Both the position numbers and the translations under genes were made by a program. A stretch of 64,000 nucleotides of DNA from Dehalococcoidia bacterium (GTDB lineage: Bacteria > Chloroflexota > Dehalococcoidia > Lucifugimonadales > CAUZJF01): the NCBI GenBank assembly GCA_965197985.1, contig CBDAOG010000005.1:531404-595403 (forward strand), given 5' to 3'. Below, piece by piece: positions 29,839-62,892 of the stretch (position 1 is its first letter; the number at the start of each line of letters is the position of its first letter). The notes beneath the pieces are model-generated. The model was not told where the DNA came from, did not search any database, and saw only the letters and a list, made by a program, of their open reading frames with translations.

Positions 29839-29844
29839 AACCTT

Positions 29845-40534: not shown

Positions 40535-42246
40535 CCCAAATCCACCGAAGGGATGACTATGCAGCAGCGGAACGGGCGATAGGGGCAAGGGAGGGCGATG
40601 GTCCGGGCACGATTTGGGGTAGAGGGGGGCCGGTGTTTGTCTTCAGTTGCCGCGGGGAGACTTTGTGACCGTCTGCGAATGTTGGTCAGGGCGAGATAGC
40701 GGGGAGAGGACGCAGCAAGAGGCACTCGCAGACCGGACTGGCGCGAGTTCGCGGGGACGTTCGGTTGGCCGGATGGCGGCCGGTTGCCGCCGCCGCCGTC
40801 AGGCAGGGAGTGGCAGGGCGCGCAATCGGGCCAGGGCACGATCGAACTGGGCTTCCCAAGGCCAGCGCTGTGGCAGATGCAGTGTGAGGCGGCGCGCCGA
40901 GCGGGTGATCCGTCCGGCCAGGGAGAAGAACCGCCGCCGGAGGGTCTTGGTGGTCACCACCTGCTCGCCCAGACCGATGCGCGCTGTCCAGCGGGCGATG
41001 TTGTGGGCCATCACCTGTACCGCCAGCCAGGCGGCGTTGGCGGCGAAGCGGCCCGAGGGGAGATGGTTCAACCCCACACCGTGCTTGAGGTCTCGGATGG
41101 CATTCTCGATCTCGGCGTGGCGGCGATGGTCGGCCTCCAGTTCGAGCATCTCCCCGTCCCGGTCGGTGATGAAGCCGTGATAGCTGTAGGTGGCGAAGAG
41201 GGCCAGCTGGGAACCGGGCGTGGGCTTCACACGCCGGACGATGAGCCGCACCGGCGCGGCGTCAGGTTCACTCTGGAAGGGAGTGCAGGTGGTCTCGGCC
41301 ACATCGGCGGTGCCGTCCATCCAGTAAGGAATCGGCGTCCAGGCATCTTCGGGTATCGCCTCGATGAGATTGTGCAGGCTTTTATGCTGGCGGATGGTGA
41401 TGGAGAAGCGGACATCCATCTTGCGGCAGACGGATACCACGCCATGAGTGTAGAACCCGCTGTCGGCCCGTAGCGTGAGTCGTCTGTTGGCCCCGGCGTA
41501 GCGCACCCGTCCCACCGTCTCCCGCAGGAAGTGGGCGGCGCCGCGGGCGGTGTTGGCCCGGCCCTCGCGCAGCCGGGACATCAGCACGTCTCCGGTGCCG
41601 GCGGCGATGGCCAGCAGTGGGTGGTAGCCCCGCTTGCCGGTATAGCCGTGGTGGCGGGCGCCCTCCTTGGCCAGTCCGTAGGTCTCGCAGATGGTGGAAT
41701 CGAGGTCGATGGTGAACGGCGCGTCGCCGGGTCCGGCCCCAGCGGCCCAGGCCCGGGCCAGCAGCTCCCGGCTCACCCGGTCCAGCTGGCGGACGTGGCC
41801 CCACCGGAAGCTGCGCAGGAAGGTGCCCAGGGTGGATGGCGCCTTGACCGTGCCGCCCAGGGTGCAGGCCGTCCCCCCGGTGCGCAACACATCAGCGTCG
41901 TCGATGCAGTCGCCGCCAGCCATGGCTGAGGCCACCAGGGTCATCAGCTTGTCTCCGGTGTTGGCCCGCCCCGGCGCGCCGCCCAGGTCAAGGTGATGGT
42001 CAACGAGTTCCCGCAGGCCCAGATGCCGGGCGAGGGTGGCCGGCAGGAGCAGACCGGCATTGGCCACCAGGCGGTGATCGTCAAAGACGATACGGATACG
42101 GTCGGGCTGGTTGCGTGGTAGCATCTATTGGGTGCTCCTTCTCTGGGACTGTTTTGCTGTTACAAAACCATTATCCCAGATTCAGAAGAGCACCCTCTGG
42201 CCTCTTCAGGATGCTAACCCGACGCCCTCCCTCGGTGGATTCGGGC
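40535..42246 (-). mobile_element. IS1380-A copy 2 (1712 bp)
   Basis: Same ends as copy 1. A perfect 4-bp duplication TAAG lies at 40531-40534 and 42247-42250. It is inserted exactly at the stop codon of the GH-like gene 42246..43610. Confidence 0.9.
40799..42124 (-). CDS. IS1380-family transposase
   Basis: 441 aa. It has two substitutions relative to copies 3 and 4: ANRRLTL and DGTADVAE. Confidence 0.9.
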   Translation of the reverse strand: MLPRNQPDRIRIVFDDHRLVANAGLLLPATLARHLGLRELVDHHLDLGGAPGRANTGDKLMTLVASAMAGGDCIDDADVLRTGGTACTLGGTVKAPSTLGTFLRSFRWGHVRQLDRVSRELLARAWAAGAGPGDAPFTIDLDSTICETYGLAKEGARHHGYTGKRGYHPLLAIAAGTGDVLMSRLREGRANTARGAAHFLRETVGRVRYAGANRRLTLRADSGFYTHGVVSVCRKMDVRFSITIRQHKSLHNLIEAIPEDAWTPIPYWMDGTADVAETTCTPFQSEPDAAPVRLIVRRVKPTPGSQLALFATYSYHGFITDRDGEMLELEADHRRHAEIENAIRDLKHGVGLNHLPSGRFAANAAWLAVQVMAHNIARWTARIGLGEQVVTTKTLRRRFFSLAGRITRSARRLTLHLPQRWPWEAQFDRALARLRALPLPA

Positions 42247-43610
42247 TAAGACGAAAACCAGACCGAAAAAACCTCCGCGTTACGGAGCCTAAGTCGAACG
42301 CTGCGCTCGGCCGGGGCGTTATCGGGCGACGGGGCGTCGGCCCAGCGGAAGACGTGGTCGAGCGAGTCGGCGCTCAATGGAACGCAACTGGCGCCGTCCA
42401 AACCCGACACGACGGCCCCGCTCTCGTCGAGGACCTCGGCCGTGATCTGGCCCTTCGACGCGTCCGCGTTCACGTGAAGCTCGCGGCCGGCTGGCATCGA
42501 TGTCGTCGCGACCTCGCCGTTGTTGCCGGAGTGAAGCCCGACTAGCCTGTCCTTCGGCCAGCTAGCCATGCCAATCGCGCGTTGCCAGCGGCCCTTCTTC
42601 TGCCCGCCGTGGGGATGGTCCATGCCGGTGTAGTAGAGGCGAAGCTCGTCCCCATCCTCAACGAACGACTCTGCGGCGCGGATGAAGCCGCCATCGAACT
42701 CACCGCGCTGCCCCATCTCCACGATCGGTCTGCGGTCGCCGACGCGCTCCCACGTCCGGCCGTCCCTGCTGCTGACTAGCTGGATGTCGATGATCCCCTG
42801 GGTGTTCACACCCGGCGTGCCCATCGCGTCGGTGGCGCGCAGGACGTCCATGAAGCCGAGGAGCACCGGCCCGTACCTGGCTATCGGGATGGCATAGATC
42901 TCAGTGGCGCTGTGGATGTCGCCACCGGTCCACTCGTCGTCCTGCTCGTCGGGGACGACCGCGGGCTGAGGCAGCGTCCACTCGAAGCCGTCTTCGCTGG
43001 TCGTCCAGTTCTGGATGCGGCGACGCCTGCCTCGGACCTCCAGAAAGCGCTTGACCATGCCGCGGAACAGTTCGTCTCTGTGATCGTACGCGGCCCAGCT
43101 GACGTCGCCGTATCGGTAGATGACCGGCTCCTCCGACCAGTCGGTCCAGCCGAAGCCGTCCTTGGAGAAACAGATATGATGACTGCCGCCGAGGTAGGCC
43201 GTTATTGAGTATTCTCGCCCTGCTCCCATCGTGGGCGTACGCATGACGCTCGCGGTCGCGCTGTGCCGGGTCTCCGGGTCCAGGAAGACGTTGTTGTCCT
43301 TGGAACCGGCTGGGTCGTCGTAGAGCCCGAGGGACGGCAGCGTCCAGTCCCTGCCGTTCTCGCTCTCGGCATGCATGTGGGAGTTCTGTCCCTTGGTCGA
43401 CGATGTGTACCACATCCGGTCGACGCCGTTCTCTCGGAGCACGGTCCCAACAATGAGCTGGCCTGTCTCCCACTCTCGGTCGGCGGCCAGCACGGGGTTG
43501 CCCTCGAACTTCCGGCCAGGATGGATGCGCCGCTCCACGCCCCGCATCGACTGTACCTGGGCGTCGTCGATGAACAGCACCCTGTCTAAGCTGATGTCGT
43601 TAGAACTCAC
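42246..43610 (-). CDS. unassigned beta-propeller glycoside-hydrolase-like protein (paralog GH-like-1)
   Basis: The N-terminus of ORF 42246..43799 runs into IS1380-A copy 3. The best internal start is GTG 43610 (VSSNDISLDRVLFIDDAQV...). It shares with 48611..49999 and 61336..62892 the motifs LF(I/V)DD, GNPV and MWY. It also shares repeated S-x-(D/N)-G-x-x-W blade motifs and the C-terminal LRNAEVFSVW. Confidence 0.6.
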   Translation of the reverse strand: MSSNDISLDRVLFIDDAQVQSMRGVERRIHPGRKFEGNPVLAADREWETGQLIVGTVLRENGVDRMWYTSSTKGQNSHMHAESENGRDWTLPSLGLYDDPAGSKDNNVFLDPETRHSATASVMRTPTMGAGREYSITAYLGGSHHICFSKDGFGWTDWSEEPVIYRYGDVSWAAYDHRDELFRGMVKRFLEVRGRRRRIQNWTTSEDGFEWTLPQPAVVPDEQDDEWTGGDIHSATEIYAIPIARYGPVLLGFMDVLRATDAMGTPGVNTQGIIDIQLVSSRDGRTWERVGDRRPIVEMGQRGEFDGGFIRAAESFVEDGDELRLYYTGMDHPHGGQKKGRWQRAIGMASWPKDRLVGLHSGNNGEVATTSMPAGRELHVNADASKGQITAEVLDESGAVVSGLDGASCVPLSADSLDHVFRWADAPSPDNAPAERSVRLRLRNAEVFSVWFSS

Positions 43611-43620
43611 GGTTTCTGAT

Positions 43621-43650
43621 GTCTTACCTCCTCTCCCGCCGCTGGAGACC
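43621..43650 (-). repeat. GEG-type hairpin repeat unit
   Basis: The minus strand reads ggtctccagcggcgggagaggaggtaagac. It lies immediately upstream of GTG 43610 in the same orientation. Confidence 0.5.
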
Positions 43651-43663
43651 TTTGAGTAACTAA

Positions 43664-45375
43664 TCCCGAATCCACCGAGGGAGGGCGTCGGGTTAGCATC
43701 CTGAAGTGGCCAGAGGGTGCTCTTCTGAATCTGGGATAATGGTTTTGTGACAGCAAAACAGTCCCAGAGAAGGAGCACCCAATAGATGCTACCACGCAAC
43801 CAGCCCGACCGTATCCGTATCGTCTTTGACGATCACCGCCTGGTGGCCAATGCCGGTCTGCTCCTGCCGGCCACCCTCGCCCGGCATCTGGGCCTGCGGG
43901 AACTCGTTGACCATCACCTTGACCTGGGCGGCGCGCCGGGGCGGGCCAACACCGGAGACAAGCTGATGACCCTGGTGGCCTCAGCCATGGCTGGCGGCGA
44001 CTGCATCGACGACGCTGATGTGTTGCGCACCGGGGGGACGGCCTGCACCCTGGGCGGCACGGTCAAGGCGCCATCCACCCTGGGCACCTTCCTGCGCAGC
44101 TTCCGGTGGGGCCACGTCCGCCAGCTGGACCGGGTGAGCCGGGAGCTGCTGGCCCGGGCCTGGGCCGCTGGGGCCGGACCCGGCGACGCGCCGTTCACCA
44201 TCGACCTCGATTCCACCATCTGCGAGACCTACGGACTGGCCAAGGAGGGCGCCCGCCACCACGGCTATACCGGCAAGCGGGGCTACCACCCACTGCTGGC
44301 CATCGCCGCCGGCACCGGAGACGTGCTGATGTCCCGGCTGCGCGAGGGCCGGGCCAACACCGCCCGCGGCGCCGCCCACTTCCTGCGGGAGACGGTGGGA
44401 CGGGTGCGCTACGCCGGGGCCAACGGACGACTCACGCTACGGGCCGACAGCGGGTTCTACACTCATGGCGTGGTATCCGTCTGCCGCAAGATGGATGTCC
44501 GCTTCTCCATCACCATCCGCCAGCATAAAAGCCTGCACAATCTCATCGAGGCGATACCCGAAGATGCCTGGACGCCGATTCCTTACTGGATGGACGGCGC
44601 CGCCGATGTGGCCGAGACCACCTGCACTCCCTTCCAGAGTGAACCTGACGCCGCGCCGGTGCGGCTCATCGTCCGGCGTGTGAAGCCCACGCCCGGTTCC
44701 CAGCTGGCCCTCTTCGCCACCTACAGCTATCACGGCTTCATCACCGACCGGGACGGGGAGATGCTCGAACTGGAGGCCGACCATCGCCGCCACGCCGAGA
44801 TCGAGAATGCCATCCGAGACCTCAAGCACGGTGTGGGGTTGAACCATCTCCCCTCGGGCCGCTTCGCCGCCAACGCCGCCTGGCTGGCGGTACAGGTGAT
44901 GGCCCACAACATCGCCCGCTGGACAGCGCGCATCGGTCTGGGCGAGCAGGTGGTGACCACCAAGACCCTCCGGCGGCGGTTCTTCTCCCTGGCCGGACGG
45001 ATCACCCGCTCGGCGCGCCGCCTCACACTGCATCTGCCACAGCGCTGGCCTTGGGAAGCCCAGTTCGATCGTGCCCTGGCCCGATTGCGCGCCCTGCCAC
45101 TCCCTGCCTGACGGCGGCGGCGGCAACCGGCCGCCATCCGGCCAACCGAACGTCCCCGCGAACTCGCGCCAGTCCGGTCTGCGAGTGCCTCTTGCTGTGT
45201 CCTCTCCCCGCTATCTCGCCCTGACCAACATTCGCAGACGGTCACAAAGTCTCCCCGCGGCAACTGAAGACAAACACCGGCCCCCCTCTACCCCAAATCG
45301 TGCCCGGACCATCGCCCTCCCTTGCCCCTATCGCCCGTTCCGCTGCTGCATAGTCATCCCTTCGGTGGATTTGGG
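43664..45375 (+). mobile_element. IS1380-A copy 3 (1712 bp)
   Basis: Same ends; the first base is T instead of G. A perfect duplication CTAA lies at 43660-43663 and 45376-45379. Confidence 0.9.
43786..45111 (+). CDS. IS1380-family transposase
   Basis: 441 aa, identical in the supplied translation to the copy-4 protein. Confidence 0.9.
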   Translation: MLPRNQPDRIRIVFDDHRLVANAGLLLPATLARHLGLRELVDHHLDLGGAPGRANTGDKLMTLVASAMAGGDCIDDADVLRTGGTACTLGGTVKAPSTLGTFLRSFRWGHVRQLDRVSRELLARAWAAGAGPGDAPFTIDLDSTICETYGLAKEGARHHGYTGKRGYHPLLAIAAGTGDVLMSRLREGRANTARGAAHFLRETVGRVRYAGANGRLTLRADSGFYTHGVVSVCRKMDVRFSITIRQHKSLHNLIEAIPEDAWTPIPYWMDGAADVAETTCTPFQSEPDAAPVRLIVRRVKPTPGSQLALFATYSYHGFITDRDGEMLELEADHRRHAEIENAIRDLKHGVGLNHLPSGRFAANAAWLAVQVMAHNIARWTARIGLGEQVVTTKTLRRRFFSLAGRITRSARRLTLHLPQRWPWEAQFDRALARLRALPLPA

Positions 45376-45518
45376 CTAAGGTGGTTTTCGATACTCATGG
45401 TTGTATGGTTCAGATTGATAGGTTCGTGGCTTTGAGCAGAACCTGTGATAGTCAGGCCCGGCCTACTAATGCTGTTAAAGAGCCGCTTGGACCTCGATTT
45501 CGAGGTTCGTTCGACCCT

Positions 45519-45857: not shown

Positions 45858-47356
45858 CTATCCAGGATTGAAACGAAGTCTCCCTATCCGCTCCAGCATT
45901 TCATCGAACATCTCCCTGGTCACCATCACCTCGGCAAGCTGGAACACAAGCCTCCTCGCATGACGCACCAGTCGCCCGCCTATCTTGATGAGTCTCGTCT
46001 GAATACTTGTCAGGGACCAGCTCTTTATCGCTTCTGGCAGAGCCAGCCTTCTGAAGAAGTTGCCCAGATTGTATGCCAGGATGAATAGCCACAGCCTCAC
46101 CTGATTAGCCACGAACTTATGGCACGAGAGCCGAGTCCAATTGAGGGCGTATTTCCCCTCTTTAATCCACTGCTCTGCTGTGCCTCTGCCATTGTAGAAG
46201 CTGACTATTCCCTTCGTTGGATAGCTCAGGTTGGTTACGATGAAGCCTACTCTTGGGAACAGTTCTCCCTGATGCCACTCCACCTTGGCCACTACTCTTC
46301 GAGGAACATTCCAACTCTGGGCCTGATAAACGAAGTCGTGATACGAGACGATGGGCTTTTGAGAGGGCCACTCGGTAGGCCGTACCAACAGGTGAGATAT
46401 TTCCTTCTGAAGCACTTCGTTCGCCGGAAGCCTTATGGCGTAGCCGATATGCCTTGTCTCCAGGTACTCGTAAATCTCAGGCTTGGCAGAAGCAGCGTCT
46501 GCTCGAAACAGCAGCCTCACCGCCAGCTTCAGGTAGCGCTCGACGATGGGATTGATGAACTCCTTCCAGCCATCGGCGCTGTGGACGTTGCCTGGTCTGA
46601 GAACCGCCCCTTCGCAATCTCCAAACTGGTTGAAGCAGAACAAGGGGTGATAGCACATGCATCCAAAGTGGCCGTTGTAGGCTGCTTCCTCCTGCTCGCC
46701 ATGCACCGGACTCTCCGAACTGTCGATGTCCAGGATGATACGCCTGTGTACGGTCTTGGCTAATGCACGTTTTATCCATTCGACATTCAGCCGCTCAATG
46801 CCCTTGAGGTTTTCCTTTTGTGTCAGCAACTCCGTCTCGAACCTACCCATCTCGCTGGTGCTGGCCGCGTTCCTGTCAGGGCCTTTCCAGCCTACCACTA
46901 CTCTCAGGGCTGGGTCTTGGGAAAGGCGGTCGGCATCATTGGTGTCGTCGTATCCAGCGAGGCGGCTGTAGACTGACTGTCTCAGCAGTGGGATTAGCTG
47001 ATGCAGGATGTTTTTGCCCGTTCGACTCTCTTTGAGGAATTCGTCGGCAGAGTCGGTCAGGCTTGATTCTCTCGTAAAAAGTCTGTGCAGGTCGAATTAG
47101 AACAACCGTACCCTTGCCTGGGTACAATATACAGTCTCTGTTCCGTGTCCTACCCCAACATACGGTAGCGCTCACATGTGCTAAAGCGCTGGAACTTCCT
47201 CAAAACGGGTTTTTACGAGGGAATCAGGCTTAGGGCGTCATCAAGCTCTCTGCACGCCAGCAGTCCTGCGTCTGAGGTGATGGTAGCACCGCGAAACTCC
47301 ACGCGAACTTTGGAGTCAAAGTCGAGCTTGAGAGGGGTCTTTTCGTCGTCACCCAT
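45858..47356 (-). pseudogene. IS1380-family transposase interrupted by MITE-C
   Basis: ATG 47356 follows GGAGG: MGDDEKTPLKLDFDSKVRVEFRGATITSDAGLLACRELDDALSL, then the MITE, then TDSADEFLKESRTGKNILHQLIPLLRQSVYSRLAGYDDTNDADRLSQDPALRVVVGWKG.... The rest is ORF 45858..46898 (ILDIDSSESPVHG, LFRADAASA, GTAEQWIKEGK). Removing 167 bp restores 1332 nt. Confidence 0.8.
47065..47225 (+). mobile_element. 161-bp MITE, copy C
   Basis: Identical to copy B. A 6-bp TSD AGGCTT lies at 47059-47064 and 47226-47231. Confidence 0.85.
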
Positions 47357-47496
47357 AAGGTGCCTCCAACACGATTACGTAATCAGAAGCCAGAACCTAT
47401 ATTCATGGGTGTATTATAATGTATAGACTCCCATTATATCCGTTTAGTAATCAGAATATTCATAGTAATCACAGGAACGCCAATCACCACTTGGGT

Positions 47497-48459: not shown

Positions 48460-48515
48460 TCTTACCGACGATTATCAACTTCGTCGCAAGGTTATGCAAA
48501 GGTCTCCGCTGGGAG
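47497..48515 (-). mobile_element. IS5-family element (IS5-B), 3' end cut off at the IS1380-B junction; upstream end approximate
   Basis: The transposase is followed directly by IS1380-B sequence. The upstream candidate end lies near ...GAGACCTTTGCATAACC (minus strand, ~48515). Confidence 0.55.
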
Positions 48516-48560
48516 AGGATTGTCGAAGATCCCGAGGCTCTCGGGGAGGTGAGGGTCTTG
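48501..48560 (+). repeat. GEG-type hairpin repeat (double unit)
   Basis: Sequence is ggtctccgctgggagaggattgtcgaagatcccgaggctctcggggaggtgagggtcttg. Confidence 0.5.
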
Positions 48561-48610: not shown

Positions 48611-49999
48611 TCATTCCCACCACACGGAAAATACCTCAGCGTCCTTCAGCCTGAGCCGGACGCTCACCGTCCGCCCATCGACCGATCCACCGGCCCCATC
48701 CTGCCACCGCACTATATGATCCAGGGAATCAGCGCCGGCCATCGCGACGCAATCGCCGGCCCCGAACCCCTCGACAACCGCGCCATCTTCACCCACCAGC
48801 TCTGCGACGACGCTCCCACTCGACGCGTCGGCGTTGACATGAAGCTCGCCGCTAGCAGGAGCAAGGCTCGTCTCAACAGCCCCGTCTCCGTTGGCGAAGA
48901 GGCCGGCGAACCTGTCCCGCGGCCACCATGCCATCCCGATGCTCTTGGCGCGGGAGTTCTTTTCGAGGGTGCCGGGCGACCTTTCACAACCGGTGTAGTA
49001 CGCGACCACTCTGTCGTCGTCGAGAGCCAACGAATTTCCAGTCCACACCAATCCGCTGTCCCACGACTCCTCCTCGCCTCGCTCCAGTATCGGGCTCCGC
49101 GCCTCGACACGTTGCCAGCTCTTGCCGTCCCGGCTGGAGACCAGCTCGACGTCCATTTCGCCGTCCAGGCCCTGACCGACGATCTCGCGACCTCGTAGCA
49201 CCTGCAGAAAGCCTAGAAGCACCGGGCCGTACCGGAAGATGGGCATCGCTCGGAAGATGGTCTTATTATTCAGGTCGTCTCCCGCCCATTCACGGTCCTT
49301 ATCGTCGGGCAATACGGCGGGACGTGGAAGCGTCCACTCGATCCCGTCCGCACTCTCGGTGTAGAGTGGCGCCCCAACGTTGTCCCAGACCACGGTCCCC
49401 CGGAAGGCCTCATCCTGTTCGTCGTAGGTAAACCAGCCATTCTCCGGGTACCCAGGGATGAGCGGAGTCTCCGACGCGTCGGTCCACCTGATGCCGTCTT
49501 CGGAAAAGGCGAGGTAGTGGCCGTTGTAGGGCAACTCGTGGCCCGACCCGTAGGCGAGCATTGCATAGGCATGCCCGTCCCAACCGCTGGGAGGGCGGAG
49601 CACGCTCGGGTTCATGTCGTTCATCAACGCCGGTCTGAGCAAAGTGATGTTGTTCTCGCGAGAGCCCGTGGAGCTCTCGTAGAGGCCGAGGGACGGCTTG
49701 GTCCAAGTGAGCCCGTCCTGACTCTCAGCGTAGAGGTGCAGGAACCGCAGGTAGGAGTCGAACTCGTTGGCCCCCGGAGCGGTCCCTCGCGACTGGTACC
49801 ACATCCGGTACGTGTCGCCATCTTTTAGGACTGTCCCGAGGGCTATGGCAGGCGCTTCCCAGTCCTCGTCAGACGTGACGACGGGGTTTCCCTCGTGTTT
49901 ACGGGCGACGTGGACACGGCGCTCGACGCCGTGCGACGTCGCGATCTGAGCGTCGTCGACGAAAAGGACCCTGCTGCCAGCAGTTGCAGGTCGGTTCAT
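48611..49999 (-). CDS. unassigned beta-propeller glycoside-hydrolase-like protein (paralog GH-like-2)
   Basis: ATG 49999 lies inside ORF 48611..50059. The sequence runs MNRPATAGSRVLFVDDAQIATSHGVERRVHVARKHEGNPVV..., ...YRMWYQS..., ESQDGLTWTKP, FSEDGIRWTD, ESADGIEWTLP, SSRDGKSWQRV and ...LKDAEVFSVWWE*. No signal peptide. Confidence 0.65.
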   Translation of the reverse strand: MNRPATAGSRVLFVDDAQIATSHGVERRVHVARKHEGNPVVTSDEDWEAPAIALGTVLKDGDTYRMWYQSRGTAPGANEFDSYLRFLHLYAESQDGLTWTKPSLGLYESSTGSRENNITLLRPALMNDMNPSVLRPPSGWDGHAYAMLAYGSGHELPYNGHYLAFSEDGIRWTDASETPLIPGYPENGWFTYDEQDEAFRGTVVWDNVGAPLYTESADGIEWTLPRPAVLPDDKDREWAGDDLNNKTIFRAMPIFRYGPVLLGFLQVLRGREIVGQGLDGEMDVELVSSRDGKSWQRVEARSPILERGEEESWDSGLVWTGNSLALDDDRVVAYYTGCERSPGTLEKNSRAKSIGMAWWPRDRFAGLFANGDGAVETSLAPASGELHVNADASSGSVVAELVGEDGAVVEGFGAGDCVAMAGADSLDHIVRWQDGAGGSVDGRTVSVRLRLKDAEVFSVWWE

Positions 50000-53892: not shown

Positions 53893-54816
53893 ATGGAATT
53901 GGTTGAGCTCGGCAACACTGGGATGAAGGTCAGCCGCATCGCTCTTGGGCTGGCCGAGATATCGCGCCAACAGAAGCAGGGGCGGGTCGACAAACCGGAC
54001 GAGGTCATCAACACCGCCCTCGATAGCGGCATCAACCTCCTGGACACCGCGGCTTGCTACGGCACCACTGAAGAGATGATCGGAGCCGCTGTGTCCCACA
54101 GGCGCGACGAGTACTACCTTGCTACAAAGTGCGGACACGACGTCGACGAGAACAGCAGGCCTAAGGACGGATCATCTCACTCGTGGACCGCCGAGGTGGT
54201 CGAGGAGAGCATCGACCGGAGCTTACGTCGGCTGCGTACCGACCACCTCGATCTGGTACAGCTCCACTCTCCTGACCTCGATGTCCTCAAGCGAGGCGAG
54301 GTTACCGAAGCCCTGGTGAAAGCCAGGGACGCCGGGAAAACCAGGTTCATCGGCCTGAGCGCGGACAATGAGGCGGCTCGTTGGGGCGTCAAGAGCGGCG
54401 TGTTCGCGACGCTTCAGACGAGCTTCAACCTCCTGGAACAGCGAGCTCGAACCACGGGGCTCTTCGAGCTCGCCGAGTCAAAGGGTGTAGGTATCCTGAT
54501 CAAGCGGCCCTTCGCGAACGGCGTCTGGGACAAGGACGAGAGCCCGTACTCCTACGGCAACGAGTATTTCGAGCGTGCCAAAGAGATGAAGAAGCTCGGG
54601 CCCATCGACGGCGCGCCTGGCGATCCGGTGCTGCTTGCGCTGGGTTTCACGCTGTCCCAACCCGAGATCGACACCATCATCGTCGGCACCCACAACCCGG
54701 CCCACGTCCGCTCGAACATCGCCATGCTCGATAAACTGCCCATCGCCCAGAAGGCGACAGAGGCTCTACGACACCGCTTCGACCAGTTGGGGAACGACTG
54801 GCTCCAGCTGACTTGA
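53893..54816 (+). CDS. aldo/keto reductase
   Basis: 307 aa. Features are GINLLDTAACYG (catalytic Tyr context), YYLATKCG (Lys), DLVQLHSPD and FIGLSADN. Confidence 0.85.
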   Translation: MELVELGNTGMKVSRIALGLAEISRQQKQGRVDKPDEVINTALDSGINLLDTAACYGTTEEMIGAAVSHRRDEYYLATKCGHDVDENSRPKDGSSHSWTAEVVEESIDRSLRRLRTDHLDLVQLHSPDLDVLKRGEVTEALVKARDAGKTRFIGLSADNEAARWGVKSGVFATLQTSFNLLEQRARTTGLFELAESKGVGILIKRPFANGVWDKDESPYSYGNEYFERAKEMKKLGPIDGAPGDPVLLALGFTLSQPEIDTIIVGTHNPAHVRSNIAMLDKLPIAQKATEALRHRFDQLGNDWLQLT

Positions 54817-54923: not shown

Positions 54924-55871
54924 ATGAACCGAGCAGAGTTGCGCAACCTGATCAAAGGCATATCCGTCGCGATACCGACGGCCTTCGACGATGATATGCG
55001 ACTAGACCTGCCGACGATGGCCGACCTGACCCAATGGTGGGTCGAGAGCGGCCTCGGGACCGACACCGCGCCCCTCAAGGTGGCAGCTGCTTGGGGCGAG
55101 GGTCCCGATCTTAGCGACGACGAATGGCCGCAACTTCTCCGAACGGTCGTGGACGCCGCCGGACCCAAAGCCGTGGTGATGTGCGCGCTGAAAGAGAAGA
55201 GCACGATGCACACCATCGAGGACGCTAAGAGGGCCCAGGACCTCGGCGCCATCGGCCTCCAGATAGAGCTGCCCTACAACCACCACCCCAACCAGGACGA
55301 CTACGTCAGGCACTTCACCACGATATCGGACAACATCGACATCGGGATCATGATCTATAACACCTTCTGGTTCGGCGCGCCGCCCATCGAGCCGGAGACG
55401 ATACTGCGGATGAAGGACACCGAGCACGTGGTCGCGGTGAAGTGGAACGCGAACCGGGAGGGCTTGGACTACGACGACATGCGCAAGTTCTCCGCCGACT
55501 TCAACGTCATAGGTAACGGCAACGGTGTTCGCTGTATCCGGAACGGCGGCGCGGGATTTGTTAGCGCGTCGGCCCCGGCTTATCCTGCATACGACCTTAA
55601 GGTCTGGAGCCTTATCGAAGAGCAACGCTACGACGAAGCCAGCGAGATGGAGACGAAGTTCCGCGATGCGATAGGAGACTGGCGCAAAAGGACAACCGAG
55701 AGGTCCGGCGGCTACCGCCAGGCCAAGGGCTTGATGGCCGTCATGGGCCACCCCGTAGGCCCGCCACGGCTCCCCACCCTGCCCATGGACGACGCCGAAT
55801 TGGCCGAGCTGGCCGAGATTCTCAAGAGCATAGGCTGGCCCGTCCCCGAGAAGACAGCCGTCGCCGCCTAA
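54924..55871 (+). CDS. DHDPS/N-acetylneuraminate-lyase-family class I aldolase (paralog 2)
   Basis: 315 aa; ATG 54924 follows AAGGAG. Features are GISVAIPTAFDDDMRLDLPTMADL, ...GLQIELPYNHHP..., ...HVVAVKWNAN (candidate Lys) and a C-terminal helical region. Confidence 0.65.
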   Translation: MNRAELRNLIKGISVAIPTAFDDDMRLDLPTMADLTQWWVESGLGTDTAPLKVAAAWGEGPDLSDDEWPQLLRTVVDAAGPKAVVMCALKEKSTMHTIEDAKRAQDLGAIGLQIELPYNHHPNQDDYVRHFTTISDNIDIGIMIYNTFWFGAPPIEPETILRMKDTEHVVAVKWNANREGLDYDDMRKFSADFNVIGNGNGVRCIRNGGAGFVSASAPAYPAYDLKVWSLIEEQRYDEASEMETKFRDAIGDWRKRTTERSGGYRQAKGLMAVMGHPVGPPRLPTLPMDDAELAELAEILKSIGWPVPEKTAVAA

Positions 55872-55882: not shown

Positions 55883-55937
55883 CAGAGCGCACAGAGATTT
55901 CTTATTACTAATACCTCTGTGCTCTCTGGTTGTTTTT
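55883..55937. terminator. bidirectional hairpin terminator between convergent genes
   Basis: CAGAGCGCACAGAG (55883-55896) pairs with CTCTGTGCTCTCTG (55915-55928), giving 13 of 14 base pairs. TTGTTTTT follows. Confidence 0.55.
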
Positions 55938-57075
55938 ATGCCCGGGCAACTATGAACGACTCGTCTGTGAACCACAGGCCAGAGTACTTGTGTAGGATCT
56001 CTCGAGTCGACTCAAGATAGTCCGCCTGCCCCATTGCCTCTTCGAGACGCTCATCCTTGATCTGCGCCACGTAGGTCGCGGCGTTCCAAGCCGCCAGTAG
56101 GGTCGACGTTCCGATCGTGTCCGCGACCTCGTCGGGGCCCGCGCGCATCCGGAATCTGAACTCGGCCTGTGAGTCCGTATAGCTCAGATAGCGGAGCGTT
56201 GGGTTGCTCTCGCCCAGCTGGGCCTGGAGCTCCCTTAACAGCTCCTGACGAGGCGTCCGGAAGGGGTGCTCGTCGGGCCAGATGCTCCTGACGATCTCCA
56301 TCCCTGGGTCCTTGCCGGTGGACTGGATCACGACCATGCATCCTCCCGCGGCCAGGGAGCGAGCAAGTGGGCTGAGCACGTTCTTCACCTTCGTCTCGGC
56401 GGGCGACCTCGCCCGGTACGGCTGGGCAGCGATGACGATGTCGTACTCGTGCCCCTGTTGTCCCTCTCGCGGGACCAGCAGTTTCAAAGAGTCGATCTGG
56501 TCTTCTCTGTAGATGACCATGACAGAAGGCGTCACGTATACCGGGTTACCGGTCTTCTCGCTAGCTCTCGTCTGCCACCAGTTTTGAAGGGAAGGCTCCA
56601 GGCCAGCGATCTGCTCGTCGAACTCGAAGGCGGTGGTTCCAATCAAGGGCACCTCGACCCAGTTGAGCTTCTCTCGCATGGACGCGGACCGAGGGCGTAA
56701 CGACGGCGCCTCCGAATAAAGCATGTTCGTGACGACGAGCACCGTCTTCGGATGTTCCAGGAACCTGTCGGCCATCTTCTCCAGGCTGATTCGGACATCC
56801 TCCTGGCTTGTCTCTTTGGCGACGACCAGGAAAGGACGGTCCGGATAGCCGTGGTGTAAATGCCGCATGACACGGCTGAGGACGGTCGCGTCACCCATCC
56901 CGGCGTCGAAAATGCGGAGTCCTCGCGTCCCGGGCTGCACGAACTGCGCGTCGGTAGCCACACGGTTCGCGATCACCTGCTTTTCGTTGCAAGTGTTCAC
57001 GAACTGGAGGTACTTCTCTCGGTTGTCGAAGAATCGGAACGGCGCCAGCCGCCGATGGATCGGTTTCAAGTTCAT
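55936..57075 (-). CDS. uncharacterised protein with a possible class I methyltransferase-like Gly motif
   Basis: 379-aa ORF with coherent composition. It has RIFDAGMGDATVLSRV (motif-I-like) and ...GGCMVVIQSTG.... I do not recognise the family. Confidence 0.4.
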   Translation of the reverse strand: MNLKPIHRRLAPFRFFDNREKYLQFVNTCNEKQVIANRVATDAQFVQPGTRGLRIFDAGMGDATVLSRVMRHLHHGYPDRPFLVVAKETSQEDVRISLEKMADRFLEHPKTVLVVTNMLYSEAPSLRPRSASMREKLNWVEVPLIGTTAFEFDEQIAGLEPSLQNWWQTRASEKTGNPVYVTPSVMVIYREDQIDSLKLLVPREGQQGHEYDIVIAAQPYRARSPAETKVKNVLSPLARSLAAGGCMVVIQSTGKDPGMEIVRSIWPDEHPFRTPRQELLRELQAQLGESNPTLRYLSYTDSQAEFRFRMRAGPDEVADTIGTSTLLAAWNAATYVAQIKDERLEEAMGQADYLESTREILHKYSGLWFTDESFIVARA

Positions 57076-57272
57076 GTGTCGAATGCGGCCATCATTGACG
57101 ATAAGAGCGCTCAGTCTAGCGGCTTTGCTGACGCGATGTACAGGCTGACAGCAGGCGTTTCGACCGACCCAGCACTGACCTGTAGGTGATATTGCCTCCT
57201 GCTATAATCGCACCGCTTGGAGACGGAATCCCGCCGGAAAGCCGACGCCACTTCGCCGTTGAAGGAGCCACG

Positions 57273-58562
57273 ATGAGCAACGTTCCAATGACCCGCCCTG
57301 AAGAAGCCCTCGCTTTACACGACCAGAGCTACGGCCACTCTCTCACGTTCGTCGGCCTCGACGACGGCCGGATCCTGCTGTCGAACGGCAGAATATTCAG
57401 GTCGAGCGACGACGGCGGCATTTCCTGGAGCGACGAGTTCAGCGGTACAACGGCGGACGGCAATCCGCTGGAGGGCAACGCCAGTCTGGTGAGCCTCTCT
57501 GGCGGGGGGATCGGCATTGCCACGATGCGGAAGAGACCGCCCAATACATACGACACCGAGATGGTCTTCCGACGCTCGGACGATGGAGGCAAGACCTGGT
57601 CCGAAGCCAAACCCATGAACACGGGCTTGATGCGGTCTCATGCGTATCAAGACACGTTCCTTAGAACGTCCTCAGGCCGAATCGTTCTTCCGGTGTACTT
57701 CGCGATCGGTCAGGGAAGCTGGCACCACGAGGAGGCGCCGTTCGTCGGCGGGTACCTGAACGGCAAGTTCATTTCGAGCGACGCCCACTTCTATGACCCA
57801 CACTTCTGCGCCAGTTACGTGCTCTACAGCGATGACGACGGCGAGACGTGGACCGCGAACCGCGACGGAGAACTTTTCATCAATCTCTGGCCCGGCGGCC
57901 CTCAGGAGTGGACGGCCGAGCCGTCCGTGGCAGAGGTCTCGCCTGGGAAGCTGCTGATGATGATGCGGACCCGGCTGGGCAGGCTCTACCAGTCGTGGTC
58001 CGAAGACAACGGCGAGAGTTGGTCTCGACCGGAGCCGAGTCAGCTGGCGGGTACTCAGGCGCCCGCCCAGGTACGATCGCTCCCCAACGGCAACCTCCTG
58101 GTCGTCTGGACCCAGCAGAGCGAAGAGGAGGTCAGACAGGGGTTCATCCGCACCCGGCTGTCGTCTGCGATCAGTAGGAACGACGGTGGCATCTGGGAGT
58201 TCTTCCAGAACGTCGAGTCCATCCACGAAGAGACTCATGTCCCGCCCCCACCCATCCAGATAGTGAAACCTGAGGGCGACTACTCGGTGCATCAAGGCCC
58301 GGCCTACGACACGGACCCGCATTACCAGGTACCGCTGCCCGACAGCTACGGTCGGTGGTCGTACCCTTCTGTGTACGTCGGCGAAGACCGTGTGCTCGTC
58401 TCTCACACGTACTCGGTCCACGAAAGCGACACGGGTGAAGTGACCGACATGGGTGGGTCGAAGTTGAAGGTGCTGCCCATCTCCTGGTTCTACGGCGGCG
58501 AGGAGCAGGCTGCCAAGAGCTTCCTCCTCGAGAAGATTGAGGCCCTTCCCCCTCGACCGTAG
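57273..58562 (+). CDS. BNR/Asp-box sialidase-fold beta-propeller protein (paralog BNR-1), no signal peptide
   Basis: ATG 57273 follows GAAGGAG. The Asp boxes are SSDDGGISWS, RSDDGGKTWS, YSDDDGETWT and WSEDNGESWS, plus a degenerate SRNDGGIWEF. Confidence 0.75.
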   Translation: MSNVPMTRPEEALALHDQSYGHSLTFVGLDDGRILLSNGRIFRSSDDGGISWSDEFSGTTADGNPLEGNASLVSLSGGGIGIATMRKRPPNTYDTEMVFRRSDDGGKTWSEAKPMNTGLMRSHAYQDTFLRTSSGRIVLPVYFAIGQGSWHHEEAPFVGGYLNGKFISSDAHFYDPHFCASYVLYSDDDGETWTANRDGELFINLWPGGPQEWTAEPSVAEVSPGKLLMMMRTRLGRLYQSWSEDNGESWSRPEPSQLAGTQAPAQVRSLPNGNLLVVWTQQSEEEVRQGFIRTRLSSAISRNDGGIWEFFQNVESIHEETHVPPPPIQIVKPEGDYSVHQGPAYDTDPHYQVPLPDSYGRWSYPSVYVGEDRVLVSHTYSVHESDTGEVTDMGGSKLKVLPISWFYGGEEQAAKSFLLEKIEALPPRP

Positions 58563-58622: not shown

Positions 58623-59963
58623 ATGAACAACGTCCCGATGACCCGGCCCGAGGAAATGCTAGCCGAGCACGAGACTTTCTTCACCGCATCGATGACCTTC
58701 GTCGAGCTTCAGGACGGTCGTATCCTCCAGGCTGGCGGTCCGAAGTTCACATTGTCCGATGACGGCGGCCTGACCTGGTCGGAGCCCTTTGAGCGGCGCG
58801 ACTCGGAGGGCAACCTCGTCGGTTTGAAGGGCAAGGCGCTGGTCAACTTGTCGGGCAACGGAATCGGTATCGCGGCGGACATCAGGGCCGACGCGCCCAA
58901 GGGCCAGGGCCGCAGGATTTCGATCCGCAACCAGGCCCACGCCGTCTTTTGGCGTTCCGAGGACGGCGGCGAGACGTGGGAGGCGCCGGTGCCGATCACG
59001 CCTCGCGGATACGGGTCCTTCTTCTTTCGAGACACCCTCGCTCGGACCTCGTCGGGCCGGATCCTGCTCCCGGTCTATGTAACGTTTGGCCAGGGAGCGA
59101 AGGACCATGCAACCCTGCCCTTTTCGGGCAAGCTCTTCAAGAACCAATGGGTCTCGACTGCGGGTCACTTCTTCGACCCGGTCTTCACCGCGGTCTACGT
59201 ATGCTTCTCCGACGACGACGGCCGCACCTGGCAACACAATGATGACGGAGAGCTGATGGTCCTCCACGACTGGAGCACGATGTTTAGCTACTGCAACGAG
59301 CCTACCATCGCCGAGGTCTCGCCTGGCCGACTCCTTCTCATGATGCGCACAGGGCTCGGTCGCCTCTTCCAGTCCTGGTCCGACGACAACGGGGAGTCAT
59401 GGACTCGGCCGCAGCCGTCGGCTCTGGCGGCCAGCACGGCGCCCGCGAAGCTGCGCTTGATCCCTTCAACCGGCCACCTGCTCGTAGTTTGGAGCCAGGA
59501 GAACGAGGATGAGATCAAGCGCGGCTTCAACCGGACGCGGATATCTTCGGCCATCAGCCGCAATGGCGGCAGCGTCTGGGAGTTCTTCCAGAACGTCGAG
59601 TCGATCCACGAGACGACGAGGGTCGAGCCGGGCCCGATCCGCCCAGTCTTCCCCGCCGAATACTCCTTTGCACCAGGCCAACCAGCCGCCGAGCGCGAAG
59701 TCGAGTACGTCGAAGGCGCAGACGTGCACGCCCGCTACTCGTACCCCTCGGTGCTGGTAACTCGTAGCGACCGGGTGCTGATCTCCTACCCGTACTCGTA
59801 CTACGAAGAGCATCCGGACCGGGCGGAGCCGGTGCGGGCGGGCCACGACGACTCGGGGCGAATGGAGAAGCTCAAGGTGCTCCCGCTTAGCTGGTTCTAC
59901 GGCGGCAAGGAGCCGGCCGACAACCCGTTCTTGCCACGAGCCCATGAGCCCGCGAGTCCATAA
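58623..59963 (+). CDS. BNR/Asp-box sialidase-fold beta-propeller protein (paralog BNR-2)
   Basis: 446 aa and collinear with BNR-1 (MNNVPMTRPEE...). The Asp boxes are LSDDGGLTWS, RSEDGGETWE, FSDDDGRTWQ and WSDDNGESWT. Confidence 0.75.
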   Translation: MNNVPMTRPEEMLAEHETFFTASMTFVELQDGRILQAGGPKFTLSDDGGLTWSEPFERRDSEGNLVGLKGKALVNLSGNGIGIAADIRADAPKGQGRRISIRNQAHAVFWRSEDGGETWEAPVPITPRGYGSFFFRDTLARTSSGRILLPVYVTFGQGAKDHATLPFSGKLFKNQWVSTAGHFFDPVFTAVYVCFSDDDGRTWQHNDDGELMVLHDWSTMFSYCNEPTIAEVSPGRLLLMMRTGLGRLFQSWSDDNGESWTRPQPSALAASTAPAKLRLIPSTGHLLVVWSQENEDEIKRGFNRTRISSAISRNGGSVWEFFQNVESIHETTRVEPGPIRPVFPAEYSFAPGQPAAEREVEYVEGADVHARYSYPSVLVTRSDRVLISYPYSYYEEHPDRAEPVRAGHDDSGRMEKLKVLPLSWFYGGKEPADNPFLPRAHEPASP

Positions 59964-60014: not shown

Positions 60015-61336
60015 ATGAGTGATGTTCCGATGACACGGCCAGAGGAGGCGCTGGCCATACACCACACGCCTTACTTCAGCAGCTCGACGTTCGTGGAGCT
60101 GGAGGACGGCCGCGTCTTACACTCAGCCGGCGAGCCCTTCACCACCTCAGACGACGGCGGCCTCACCTGGTCCGACGAGTTCCGGCGCGTCGACACGAAC
60201 GGCGACCCTGTCGCCACGGGCGGCGCGTCGCTGGCGCGGCTATCTGGCAAGGGCATCGGGCTGGCCGAACGGAAGGTCGACAAAGACGCCACGCTCGGCA
60301 ACCGTCATCGCGTACTTTTCTGGCGCTCCGAGGACGGCGGCGAGACTTGGGAGCCCCCGGTACAGGTCAGTATCCCAAGACTCGACACTCACGTGTACCA
60401 GGACGTGCTGCTGAGGACGTCTTCTGGGCGGTTAATCCTGCCCGTCTACACCCACGAGGGGCAGAGCAAGCTCACCGGCCCTAATGACGTCACGCAGCCC
60501 GCCTCGGGAAGGCTCGTGCGCGGCCAGTGGGTCTCGACGAGCGCCCATTTCTTCGATCCAGGGTTCTCGTCCGTACACGTCTGGTACTCGGACGACGAAG
60601 GACGCACTGGGAGCGGAACGAGGACGGCGACCTCTTCATCCTGATGGACTGGAACGCCATGTACAGCTACGTGAATGAGCCGTCGGTAACCGAGGTCTCG
60701 CCCGGAAAGCTATTAATGTTCATGCGCACGGGCCTGGGTCGACACTATCAGGCCTGGTCCGACAACAACGGCGTCACCTGGACGCGCCCCCAGCCGACCG
60801 CGCTAGCCGCCAGCACGACGCCGTGCCAGATAAGGACGTTGTCGAACGGCCACCTGCTGCTGGTCTGGAACCAGGAGAACGAGGAAGAGGTCAAGCGCGG
60901 CTACAATCGGCAACGGATCTCGTCGGCCATCAGCCGGAACGGCGGTAGCGTCTGGGAGTTCTTCCAGAACGTCGAGTCGCTGCACGAGGGCACTCGGGTC
61001 GAGCCTGGACCCATCCGGCCGGTCCGGCCCGTCGAAAAGCACTTCGAGCCCGGCGTACCGGCCGCCGAGCGAGAGCCCGAACACATCGTCGCCGAGCCCT
61101 ACTACTCCCGGTTCTCCTACCCGTCGGTCCTAGTAATGAAAGACCGGGTGCTAATCACCCACAGTTTCTCCGACTACGAGGAGCACCCGACGAAGGGCCA
61201 GCTTGTGTTCAGAGGCCATTCGCCGGGAAAGTGGAATCAGAAGCTGAAGGTGCTACCTCTGACCTGGTTCTACGGCGGTAAGGAGCCGGCCGACAACCCG
61301 TTCTTGCCGAGAGCCCACGAGCCGGCATCGCCGTAA
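60015..61336 (+). pseudogene. BNR/Asp-box sialidase-fold protein (paralog BNR-3) with a single-nucleotide frameshift
   Basis: ORFs 60015..60644 and 60527..61336 are one gene. ...HVWYSDDEGRT is followed in the next frame by WERNEDGDLFILMDWNAMYSYVNEP.... One base is missing at CGC AC_ TGG (60603-60610). Confidence 0.7.
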
Positions 61337-62892
61337 TGCATATCGCATATTCAAGGGACAAGCTCTTCAAAGACATCGGTTCCCGCCGGCAGCTCTTCAT
61401 CGACGACGACGTCATCGCTTTCGTGCGGAACCTCACCCGACGCCAGCACTGGCCCGAGAAACACCCGGCGAACCCTCTGGTCAGCAGGAGCGAACCGTGG
61501 GAGGTGGCTCCCCAGTTCCGCACCAGCAACTTCAACGTGGCCAAAGACGACCTCTTTAAGGCGTGGTGCACCGACTTCTACGGCTATTTCGGCAGCGACA
61601 AAATGACCTACGGGCTCAACAGCCTCAACAGCCGTCACTACTACATGCAGTCGGAAGATGGGCTCAACTGGGAAAAGCCGCTGCTGGGCAAGCACGAGGT
61701 CGACGGCCACGACACCAACACTGTTTTCGCCCACCCGCCTTACGAGCTGGTCATCTGTCCTTCGATCATGCTCGACCCTGACGAAAACGACGAGTCGAGG
61801 CGCTACAAAATGGCGTACCTTTTCAAGCCAAAGGACGCGCCGTTTCCGAAGCGCGGAGGCAGCCGCTTCCACGGCGCTGGACTCAGCCTGGCCTTCTCGC
61901 CCGATGGCATCGACTGGACACCGTACGACGGCAACCCTGTGGTACCCGGCTGGGTCAGCGACGTCTGTATCCTAACCCACGACACCATCGACGGGAAGTA
62001 CATTCTCTTCGGCCGGGCAGGCGGCGTTGCCGGAAGCAGCTCCCACCCGGAGTTCAACCGCTGGTTCCCTCGCGTTTACCCAGGCGGTCCCGATGGAATC
62101 TGGGGCACCCGACGCCGCGTCTACAGGCTCGAAAGTGACGACGGCTTCAACTGGTCAGAGCCAGAGCTCATCTTCGACCCGGACGAGAACGACAACCTGG
62201 ACGACCATCACTACGGTTTCGTGAGCTGGCGTGCCGACGAGATGCACCTGGGCATCCTCAACGTCCTCCACTCCGTCGACAACACGATGGACATGTACAT
62301 GCTCTACAGCCGAGACGGGCTCCAGTGGCAGCGATTCCAGGAGCACCGCCCGCTGGTCCTTCGCGGAGGTGCGGGTAGCTTCGACGAGTTCGGAGTCGAA
62401 ACGCCGACACAGCCGATCGTCATCGGCGACGAAGTGTGGTTCTACTACGGCGGCATGAACGTCCACCACGACTGGTGGATCTTCGGCCGGCAGGAGGGGC
62501 TAGCCGTTCCCGAGGCCCTCGACCCTGCCCTCTCGGCGGACGGCCATCATCTGGGTCTCGCGACCCTCCGCTTCGACGGCTACGTCTCCCTCGACGCGAC
62601 CGTCCGGGAGGGTCACCTCGAGACGAAACCGGTCTATTCCAAGGCGCCCCAACTCTTCATCAACGGGCGCTGCGACCCCGGTGGTTACATCGAGGTGGAG
62701 GTGCGAGACAGGTGGGACAACGTATGGGACGGCTTCTCTAGAGAAGACTGTGACACCTTTACCGGCGACGACATCCACCACCGCGTGACGTGGCAGGGTC
62801 GCGACGCCGTCGACGAGGTCCCAGATTCGGTAAAGCTCCGGTTCTACCTCAAGAACGCAGAGCTATATAGCTTCCAATTCGCGAACAATTGA
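61336..62892 (+). CDS. unassigned beta-propeller glycoside-hydrolase-like protein (paralog GH-like-3)
   Basis: 518 aa. Its ATG overlaps the BNR-3 stop in TAATG (61334-61338). The sequence runs RRQLFIDDDVIAF..., ...HPANPLV..., QSEDGLNWEKP, FSPDGIDWTPY, ESDDGFNWSEP, YSRDGLQWQRF and ...LKNAELYSFQF. Confidence 0.65.
   Translation: MHIAYSRDKLFKDIGSRRQLFIDDDVIAFVRNLTRRQHWPEKHPANPLVSRSEPWEVAPQFRTSNFNVAKDDLFKAWCTDFYGYFGSDKMTYGLNSLNSRHYYMQSEDGLNWEKPLLGKHEVDGHDTNTVFAHPPYELVICPSIMLDPDENDESRRYKMAYLFKPKDAPFPKRGGSRFHGAGLSLAFSPDGIDWTPYDGNPVVPGWVSDVCILTHDTIDGKYILFGRAGGVAGSSSHPEFNRWFPRVYPGGPDGIWGTRRRVYRLESDDGFNWSEPELIFDPDENDNLDDHHYGFVSWRADEMHLGILNVLHSVDNTMDMYMLYSRDGLQWQRFQEHRPLVLRGGAGSFDEFGVETPTQPIVIGDEVWFYYGGMNVHHDWWIFGRQEGLAVPEALDPALSADGHHLGLATLRFDGYVSLDATVREGHLETKPVYSKAPQLFINGRCDPGGYIEVEVRDRWDNVWDGFSREDCDTFTGDDIHHRVTWQGRDAVDEVPDSVKLRFYLKNAELYSFQFANN

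Follow-up and report, generated by a model that had tools for sequence, protein, structure and literature searches.

The best-described relatives of the genes considered here are glycoside hydrolase (GH) families with a five-bladed beta-propeller. In GH130, cytoplasmic members are phosphorylases with three basic phosphate-binding residues and secreted members are hydrolases in which Glu has taken their place; an invariant candidate catalytic Asp lies in an 'EDPR' motif (BT3780 D142, UhgbMP D104), and the -1 subsite has conserved residues (BT3780 N74 and R89) (PMC4599007). The propellers of GH32 and GH43 carry the short Asp-box (S/t-x-D/n-x-x-x-W), a structural hairpin usually present in one to three copies (PMC2716378), and clan GH-F combines an acidic triad in the central funnel with a His-bound central metal (PMC9278983). 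Here we analysed a 64,000-nucleotide stretch of the genome of a marine Dehalococcoidia (Chloroflexota) bacterium (contig CBDAOG010000005.1, positions 531,404 to 595,403; hereafter the window), and in it three genes, A, B and C (Table 1), which an earlier note on this DNA had described as paralogs of an unassigned propeller family. Our results place them in a distinct family within the known GH130/GH-J/GH-F propeller superfamily.

Open reading frames (ORFs) for A, B and C were all found where that note had located them, and their start codons (43610, 49999 and 61336) agree with the N-termini of homologues. The claimed paralogy held up, as BLASTP detected full-length similarity among all three: A and B share 45% identity over 461 aa (E 5e-131), B and C 27% over 515 aa (E 1e-32), and A and C 26% over 526 aa (E 2e-33), a relatedness far above chance. 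When the window was searched with a hidden Markov model (HMM) built from the family, exactly these three members were recovered. The shared motifs also proved to be largely as described. An N-terminal R/QxLF(I/V)DD...NP(V/L)(V/L) block is present in each protein, but the 'MWY' said to belong to it occurs only in A and B, C having 'AWC' instead. Blade motifs of the form S-x-(D/N)-G-x-x-W, put at four or more, number exactly four per protein in both translations and alignment (in C they begin at S106, S188, S267 and S325), and they fit the short Asp-box. For the mid-section motif, A and B have 'YGPVLLGF' and C has 'MHLGIL'; all three carry the C-terminal L(R/K)(N/D)AE(V/L)(F/Y)S(V/F) segment, and a hydrophobic N-terminal signal sequence was found in none of them.

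We built AlphaFold2 models of B (predicted local distance difference test score, pLDDT, 93.4; predicted template modelling score, pTM, 0.92) and of C (pLDDT 92.6, pTM 0.94) on family alignments. Both models are all-beta, with a short N-terminal hairpin, five four-stranded blades and then a C-terminal beta-sandwich, bearing out the earlier proposal of a GH32/43/68/130-type propeller followed by a sandwich domain. In both, the short Asp-boxes are placed after the third strand of blades 1-4. Upon comparison with the PDB by Foldseek (statements here cover the 50 best matches of each model), all top matches were five-bladed carbohydrate-active propellers. For B, the best fifteen were all GH130 proteins, among them 9fj8 (E 5e-13, 16% identity, template modelling (TM) score of 0.73 on the target), and 9fj8, 7fip and 4udg together spanned TM scores of 0.68-0.73 on the target. 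For C, the GH32 protein 7bwb (E 6e-12), GH43, the deacetylase 6n1a and GH130 led, followed by GH137, GH62, GH143 and PL42. With the two models, full-length alignments were obtained to the GH32-type structures 7bwb, 3sc7 and 1uyp.

Sequence searches point the same way at greater distance. Family profiles run against PDB sequences matched GH130 7fip (E 1.5e-13 and 1.5e-10), 6n1a (E 2e-12 to 4e-12) and GH32 1uyp (E 2e-8), the best PDB relatives having profile E-values of 1e-13 to 1e-8 at 11-17% identity, and GH32-like blade motifs align ('YHMFYQ...WGHAVSDDLVHW' with 'yrmWYq...YAeSeDGieW'). Single-sequence search of the PDB gave nothing meaningful, and the 2026 copy of the PDB held no relative closer than GH130. 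A and B match no family in Pfam or NCBIfam, and C's sole Pfam contact is PF24067, the BT_1020/GH143 propeller (E 0.03, 14 bits against a cut-off of 27, over ~40 residues). Thus, across Pfam, NCBIfam and the PDB, no characterised family claims A, B and C, as the earlier note had anticipated; Pfam and NCBIfam give no match above cut-off, and the PDB relatives are remote. The fold superfamily is already known, and the family is mechanistically not surprising.

GH130 (e.g., Teth514_1788/1789, UhgbMP and BT3780) has the same five-bladed propeller and provides both the best structural match for B and the best or near-best profile match, with 'NP..WE' and 'YA.S.DG' motifs in common in blade 1; its phosphorylases are cytoplasmic, as are A, B and C. 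Even at E<=1, the Pfam model of GH130 (Glyco_hydro_130/DUF377) matched none of the three proteins, and NCBIfam gave no GH130 match either. At the position of the GH130 'EDPR' Asp, HMM alignments place L-D147-P in C (residue numbers for the family follow C), R-T-P in A and R-P-P in B. D147 is invariant in the alignment of the C-type subfamily and conserved only in its members, the position being D/E in 83/126 sequences across the family and T in 25/126. R/K227 aligns with the Arg of the GH130 'HR' motif, and R260 comes close to the Arg that follows; these two Arg are presumably phosphate-binding positions of the phosphorylases. The Asn of 'FN' and the Arg of 'FYR' in 7fip are, judging by motif, presumably the equivalents of BT3780 N74 and R89, yet this -1 (mannose) subsite is not conserved in the family, where the aligned positions are hydrophobic or Gln/Thr. 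The family further differs from GH130 in its extra C-terminal beta-sandwich, its conserved N-terminal 'LFIDD...R..H' segment and its retention of the basic residues in secreted members.

GH32 (clan GH-J; invertases and fructanases such as T. maritima 1UYP) shares both the propeller and the C-terminal beta-sandwich and gave C's top Foldseek E-values; its 'FYQ' and short Asp-box motifs align, as does its RDP Asp, with D216. However, A, B and C lack the EC motif and, as already noticed from the sequence, anything resembling WMNDPNG, no fructan-related context was seen near the family's genes, and the root-mean-square deviation over both domains is ~16 Å, which suggests, as far as the models go, a different domain arrangement. 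Neither Glyco_hydro_32N nor Glyco_hydro_32C of Pfam matches A, B or C; some distant family members have weak partial matches to Glyco_hydro_32N, and the partial sequence P0076 has a stronger one, to the first 64 profile positions. Clan GH-F (GH43, GH62, GH117 and GH159) has the same propeller fold, with a C-terminal beta-sandwich often present in GH43, and short Asp-boxes (PMC2716378). By analogy, its metal-binding His could correspond to H378 of the family. Conserved carboxylates lie near the starts of the inner strands and are at most candidates for the Asp/Asp/Glu triad of GH43 (blades 1, 3 and 4). Pfam's GH43 gave no match for A, B or C, 'faint' precomputed Glyco_hydro_43_rel matches occur on a few relatives only, and the profile E-value for GH117 is only ~0.02. 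The GH143 propeller of BT_1020, which acts on a 2-keto-3-deoxy sugar acid, is likewise five-bladed and was found by Foldseek with C at E 3e-7, its Pfam score being below cut-off.

Three further families were considered and set aside. GH159 (7ZEI) is single-domain and, despite having a PDB entry, is absent from the profile matches and from the top-50 Foldseek lists. GH181 (Amuc_1547) is six-bladed (PMC12018670). GH33 sialidases are six-bladed, with an Arg triad, RIP motif and eight-residue Asp-boxes, whereas our models are five-bladed and the motifs are of the short seven-residue form; sialidases appeared among the profile matches only at E>=0.015.

The family is large. A profile search of 1.84 billion representatives retrieved 5,652 clusters at E<=1e-30 and 17,267 at E<=1e-10 (50%-identity clusters), and since GH130 was estimated to score only ~1e-9 in the same search, these counts reflect the family proper. 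Almost without exception, the source annotations of the relatives read 'hypothetical protein', and literature searches found no paper that describes the family. Close relatives of C come from metagenome-assembled genomes (MAGs) of Dehalococcoidia/Chloroflexota (97% identity in CBDFJV010000002.1); a genome scan, which used C alone as the query and reaches only C-type relatives, located others in MAGs of Spirochaetia and Latescibacterota, and still more distant relatives belong to Pirellulales. One 3.0-Mb Chloroflexota contig holds at least eight C-type genes. Signal-peptide-like N-termini were seen in ~15-17% of members, in a sample biased to close relatives, the rest having none, and some members are fused to a Laminin_G_3 lectin-like, alginate lyase, GHL10, S9-type esterase, GDPD or PMT_2 membrane domain.

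Aligning the paralogs with the wider family, a check proposed in the earlier note, located the conserved acidic residues D23, E56, D/E209, D216, D286, D350 and D365. Besides these and the Asp-box positions, the polar residues conserved family-wide are R35, H38, N128, R260, Y293 and H378, with R156 and R/K227 conserved in most members; the conserved acidic and basic residues exceed 90% across 126-344 sequences. The strand order in the models puts E56, N128, D209, D286 and D350 ahead of the inner strands of blades 1-5, and R227, R260 and H378 in B-C loops, which, by analogy with GH130-type propellers, would lie on the face that bears the active site. The A-type subfamily keeps R/K227, R260, Y293 and H378; the orthologues of A also have R156, where A itself has Glu. 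In B-type proteins (B and its orthologues, from four genomes), R156, R/K227, R260, Y293 and H378 are all replaced, while E56, N128, D/E209, D216, D286 and D350 are kept. Members with signal peptides retain R156, R/K227 and R260 no less strictly than cytoplasmic members do.

Given this fold and residue pattern, we consider the chances about even that A, B and C work in the cytoplasm as exo-glycosidases, on glycosides that are imported and probably anionic. Oligosaccharides or glycosides would be imported and then trimmed in the cytoplasm by A, B and C, and the released sugars or sugar acids would be passed to the products of the neighbouring dehydratase, aldolase and reductase genes. The putative active site would be the central propeller funnel, lined by E56, D209, D286, D350, N128, H378, R156, R/K227 and R260, of which R156, R/K227 and R260 probably hold the anionic group of the substrate (a carboxylate or sulfate). 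Because these three residues are kept in the members with signal peptides, we read them, from sequence, as contacts for an anionic substrate group rather than for a phosphate nucleophile, which indirectly favours hydrolysis of carboxylated or sulfated glycosides; if the family cleaves glycosides, its members are most likely hydrolases.

Several observations weigh against this glycosidase reading. A and B have no counterpart of the GH130 catalytic Asp, and the GH32 nucleophile motif is missing in all three. Among close homologues, none has been named or structurally solved, and identity to any characterised enzyme is at most 17%. Residues were placed in the funnel from strand order and HMM alignments, which are partly discordant, as D216 aligns to the GH32 RDP Asp while strand topology favours D209. 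The B-type proteins lack five otherwise conserved residues and may not be catalytic. As for genomic context, the C-type neighbourhood is not conserved in other Chloroflexota (35 loci), in which no fixed partner was found, and sugar-acid genes are so dense in SAR202-type genomes that proximity to them is weak evidence (PMC10444878).

We therefore weighed other activities against glycoside hydrolysis. A GH130-like phosphorylase, in which phosphate held by the basic residues would attack the anomeric carbon and a sugar 1-phosphate would be released, is possible but unlikely. No structures come closer to B than those of GH130 phosphorylases, which also rank among the best profile matches, R/K227 and R260 correspond to or lie near the Arg residues to which we ascribed phosphate binding, and D147 of C aligns with the invariant GH130 Asp. 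The cytoplasmic location of A, B and C is shared with the phosphorylases, yet members with signal peptides keep the three basic residues just as strictly, unlike the secreted GH130 hydrolases (PMC4599007); furthermore, A and B are without the Asp, the B-type is without all three basic residues, and no sugar-phosphate mutase or kinase genes were seen next to the genes. Distinctly unlikely, in our estimate, is that A, B and C are, for example, lactonases, isomerases, cyclases or lyases whose substrates are free sugar acids or lactones instead of glycosidic bonds, and so one more paralog set in the non-phosphorylative sugar-acid pathways of the SAR202 type. MR_MLE, DHDPS, aldo-keto reductase (AKR), Ldh_2, PhyH, glyoxalase and GFO_IDH genes adjoin them, SAR202 genomes expand such sets of pathway enzymes while having few recognised glycosidases (PMC10444878), and the conserved basic residues would suit a carboxylate. 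However, in the top 50 Foldseek matches per model and the significant profile matches, all proteins whose activity has been described act on glycans, and nearly all of them cleave or form glycosidic bonds, the exceptions being a glycan deacetylase and a glycosidic lyase. Moreover, the fusions to lectin-like and polysaccharide-lyase domains, together with ~15% secreted members, fit polymeric or oligomeric substrates better.

The deacetylase just mentioned, the Flavonifractor plautii GalNAc deacetylase 6n1a, raises a further alternative, namely that the family consists of metal-dependent carbohydrate de-N-acetylases or esterases. This protein has a five-bladed propeller, repeated S-x-DG-x-x-W motifs and a 'GSWD' segment in common with the family; it is the top profile match for the A/B-centred alignment (E 2.4e-12) and the second for alignment A1, and appears in both Foldseek lists. 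Conserved H38, H378, D23 and D350 could bind a metal, and acetyltransferase-like genes lie nearby. We nonetheless hold a deacetylase or esterase to be very improbable, given that the alignment to 6n1a, which is not a glycosidase, is carried mostly by the Asp-box blades and 'GSWD', with one of its two stretches out of register, and that its TM score of 0.51-0.53 falls below the 0.7 of GH130. Lastly, at least the B-type may be a non-catalytic partner, a pseudo-enzyme or binding subunit that pairs with the A-type, so that the three would not be independent enzymes. The loss of R156, R/K227, R260, Y293 and H378 from the B-types of four genomes would agree with this, as would the finding, in three unrelated contexts, that the stop codon of the B gene overlaps or abuts the start codon of an adjacent A gene; yet the B-type keeps six other conserved residues (those listed above, from E56 to D350) and is 55-62% conserved between phyla, and we judge such a role quite improbable.

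Cultured SAR202 bacteria were reported to have few recognisable glycoside hydrolases and have been proposed to scavenge sugar monomers released by other bacteria (PMC10444878). Its size, its lack of annotation and its multiplication in a reportedly glycosidase-poor lineage make the family a reasonable target for biochemical characterisation, for which the conserved residues and the B-A pairing offer concrete targets for expression and mutagenesis. It may represent sugar-degrading capacity overlooked by standard annotation. If its members cleave glycosides, the family would merit its own CAZy entry, and the picture of carbon use by SAR202 and sponge symbionts would need revising. A bolder version, speculative and in our view rather unlikely, is that SAR202-type and sponge-associated Chloroflexota have multiplied a large and cryptic family of glycosidases, overlooked by standard CAZyme annotation and directed at anionic sugars (uronic, ulosonic or sulfated), in which B and A form an obligate heteromer of catalytic A and degenerate B; were it true, 'glycosidase-poor' bacteria would have their own way to open glycosides.

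The pairing of B with A is seen well beyond the window. In three unrelated contexts, including a Tara Oceans MAG, a B orthologue (55-62% identical) is directly followed by an A orthologue (63%), their stop and start codons overlapping or abutting, and the B-A order is conserved in L037-L043 and in L047. On the minus strand of the window, the order is B, insertions, A, a copy of an insertion sequence (IS), MR_MLE and DHDPS; in the sister strain L047 it is B, one IS, A, MR_MLE and DHDPS. Insertion sequences have thus split the B-A pair in the window. A third, distant paralog often lies near B-A pairs elsewhere: the genes without a Pfam match beside the pairs in L042 (3630-5126) and L039 (12575-14158) are distant family members, 24-29% identical, and three-member family clusters therefore recur. 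Tandem C-type pairs were found in Spirochaetia. With these tandems, the B-A pairs and the extra paralogs, multi-paralog clusters appear as a general property of the family, of which the trio in the window is one instance. Genes that recur beside B-A pairs encode BNR_2, glyoxalase-family, PhyH, GFO_IDH_MocA and DHDPS proteins and ATP-binding cassette (ABC) or major facilitator superfamily (MFS) transporters.

C is probably the last gene of an operon with three BNR_2 (sialidase-fold) genes. None of the three BNR_2 proteins of the window has a signal peptide, and they are only remotely related to GH33; the split third gene is either a recent pseudogene with a frameshift or a long-read assembly error. 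Outside the lineage of the window, BNR_2 is not linked to C-type genes in the 35 loci, where only loose themes recur: an ABC transporter, 2-hydroxyacid dehydrogenase, short-chain dehydrogenase/reductase (SDR) and GFO_IDH. More broadly, CUT1-type (SBP_bac_1) and SBP_bac_5 ABC transporters, MFS, GFO_IDH_MocA, SDR, DHDPS, MR_MLE and BNR_2 genes occur next to homologues, one of which adjoins two NanM-like mutarotase genes and an HpcH aldolase gene. Such carbohydrate-related neighbours, like the fusions to Laminin_G_3, alginate lyase and GHL10, speak for the glycosidase reading.

The earlier note had also taken the sugar-acid genes near A, B and C as a hint to function. In SAR202-type Dehalococcoidia, a genome has ~80 MR_MLE genes, along with numerous paralogs of DHDPS, AKR and SDR (PMC10444878); as one or two such genes are expected in any 20 kb, their mere proximity carries little weight, and this part of the hint is weaker than it seemed. 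Better evidence comes from the B-A pair, the BNR_2 link and the B-A-MR_MLE-DHDPS order found in two strains. The sugar-gene cluster also contains two methyltransferase-like genes. The 379-aa one (55936-57075, minus strand) has no Pfam match and only a weak match to the CurJ C-methyltransferase (E 2e-4). The other, a 282-aa Methyltransf_11 gene (52860-53708, plus strand), is absent from the related genome L003 and present in L047. Possibly glycan-related are a large Sortilin/Vps10-BNR protein that runs off the window start (2-2383, minus strand) and a 678-aa protein (24563-26599, plus strand) whose only match is to the Glyco_hydro_42M trimerisation domain.

Table 1. Positions of A, B and C, the domains of C, neighbouring genes and insertion sequence copies in the window
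Feature	Position	Strand	Extent	Remarks
Paralog A	42246..43610	-	454 aa	A-type subfamily; orthologues directly downstream of B-type genes in other genomes
Paralog B	48611..49999	-	462 aa	B-type subfamily; upstream partner in the conserved B-A pair
Paralog C	61336..62892	+	518 aa	C-type subfamily; its ATG and the stop codon of BNR_2 gene 3 overlap
Five-bladed beta-propeller domain of C	61468..62580	+	~residues 45-415	From DSSP of the model and conservation tables
C-terminal beta-sandwich domain of C	62581..62889	+	~residues 416-518	All-beta in the model; full-length Foldseek alignments to two-domain GH32/GH43
DHDPS/aldolase-family gene	38116..39168	-		After MR_MLE
MR_MLE (enolase-superfamily) dehydratase-like gene	39119..40285	-		Downstream of A; adjoins A in L047
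Aldo-keto reductase	53893..54816	+		Between B and the BNR_2-C run
Second DHDPS-family gene	54924..55871	+		Between B and the BNR_2-C run
BNR_2 (sialidase-fold) gene 1	57186..58562	+		Cytoplasmic; likely true start is an internal ATG near 57273
BNR_2 gene 2	58623..59963	+		Cytoplasmic; only remote relation to GH33 sialidases
BNR_2 gene 3	60015..61336	+		Split over two reading frames; single intact 451-aa ORF in the related genome L003
IS copy	14347-16069	+		
IS copy	40528-42249	-		
IS copy	43660-45385	+		
IS copy	50546-52270	+		
IS copy	62926-64000	-		Cut by the window end

The insertions around A belong to a single 1.72-kb IS, of which the window holds five copies that are 99.3-99.7% identical. 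It encodes a 441-aa DDE_Tnp_1_4 transposase, has terminal inverted repeats of ~24 bp and appears to be flanked by TTAG/CTAA duplications; the near-identity of the copies indicates very recent transposition. The copy at 40528-42249 is inserted exactly at A's TAG stop, its terminal TTAG supplying or duplicating the stop codon. The copy at 43660-45385, inverted relative to the former, ends up on the upstream side of A, 50 bp from its start, and separates it both from B and from any native promoter. A is thereby bracketed by two inverted copies in a composite-transposon-like layout (40528-45385). Another copy splits an aminoglycoside 3-N-acetyltransferase-family gene (50164-50589 and 52207-52728) that is intact in L003 and interrupted in L047.

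Two further ORFs lie between A and B. One (45858-46898, minus strand) is a second DDE_Tnp_1_4 transposase gene that is 5'-truncated and covers only profile positions 94-434. The other, a 377-aa ORF (47419-48552, plus strand), is probably not a real gene, given its low G+C content at third codon positions (0.59), its lack of homologues among the loci examined and its lack of a Pfam match. A repeat of 165-174 bp is present in three copies with 99-100% identity (16972-17145, 29675-29839 and 47055-47228), one of them inverted, and may be a miniature inverted-repeat transposable element or an IS end fragment. Other transposase families (DDE_3, Mutator, IS21 istA/istB, DUF772 and rve) account for at least six additional genes, at 2801-3952, 10196-11406, 13096-14310, 17550-19533, 30540-34054 and 36696-37940, and the window is unusually rich in insertion sequences. 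An ATP-dependent DNA ligase gene beside a Ku gene, the bacterial non-homologous end-joining pair, occupies 19604-21665.

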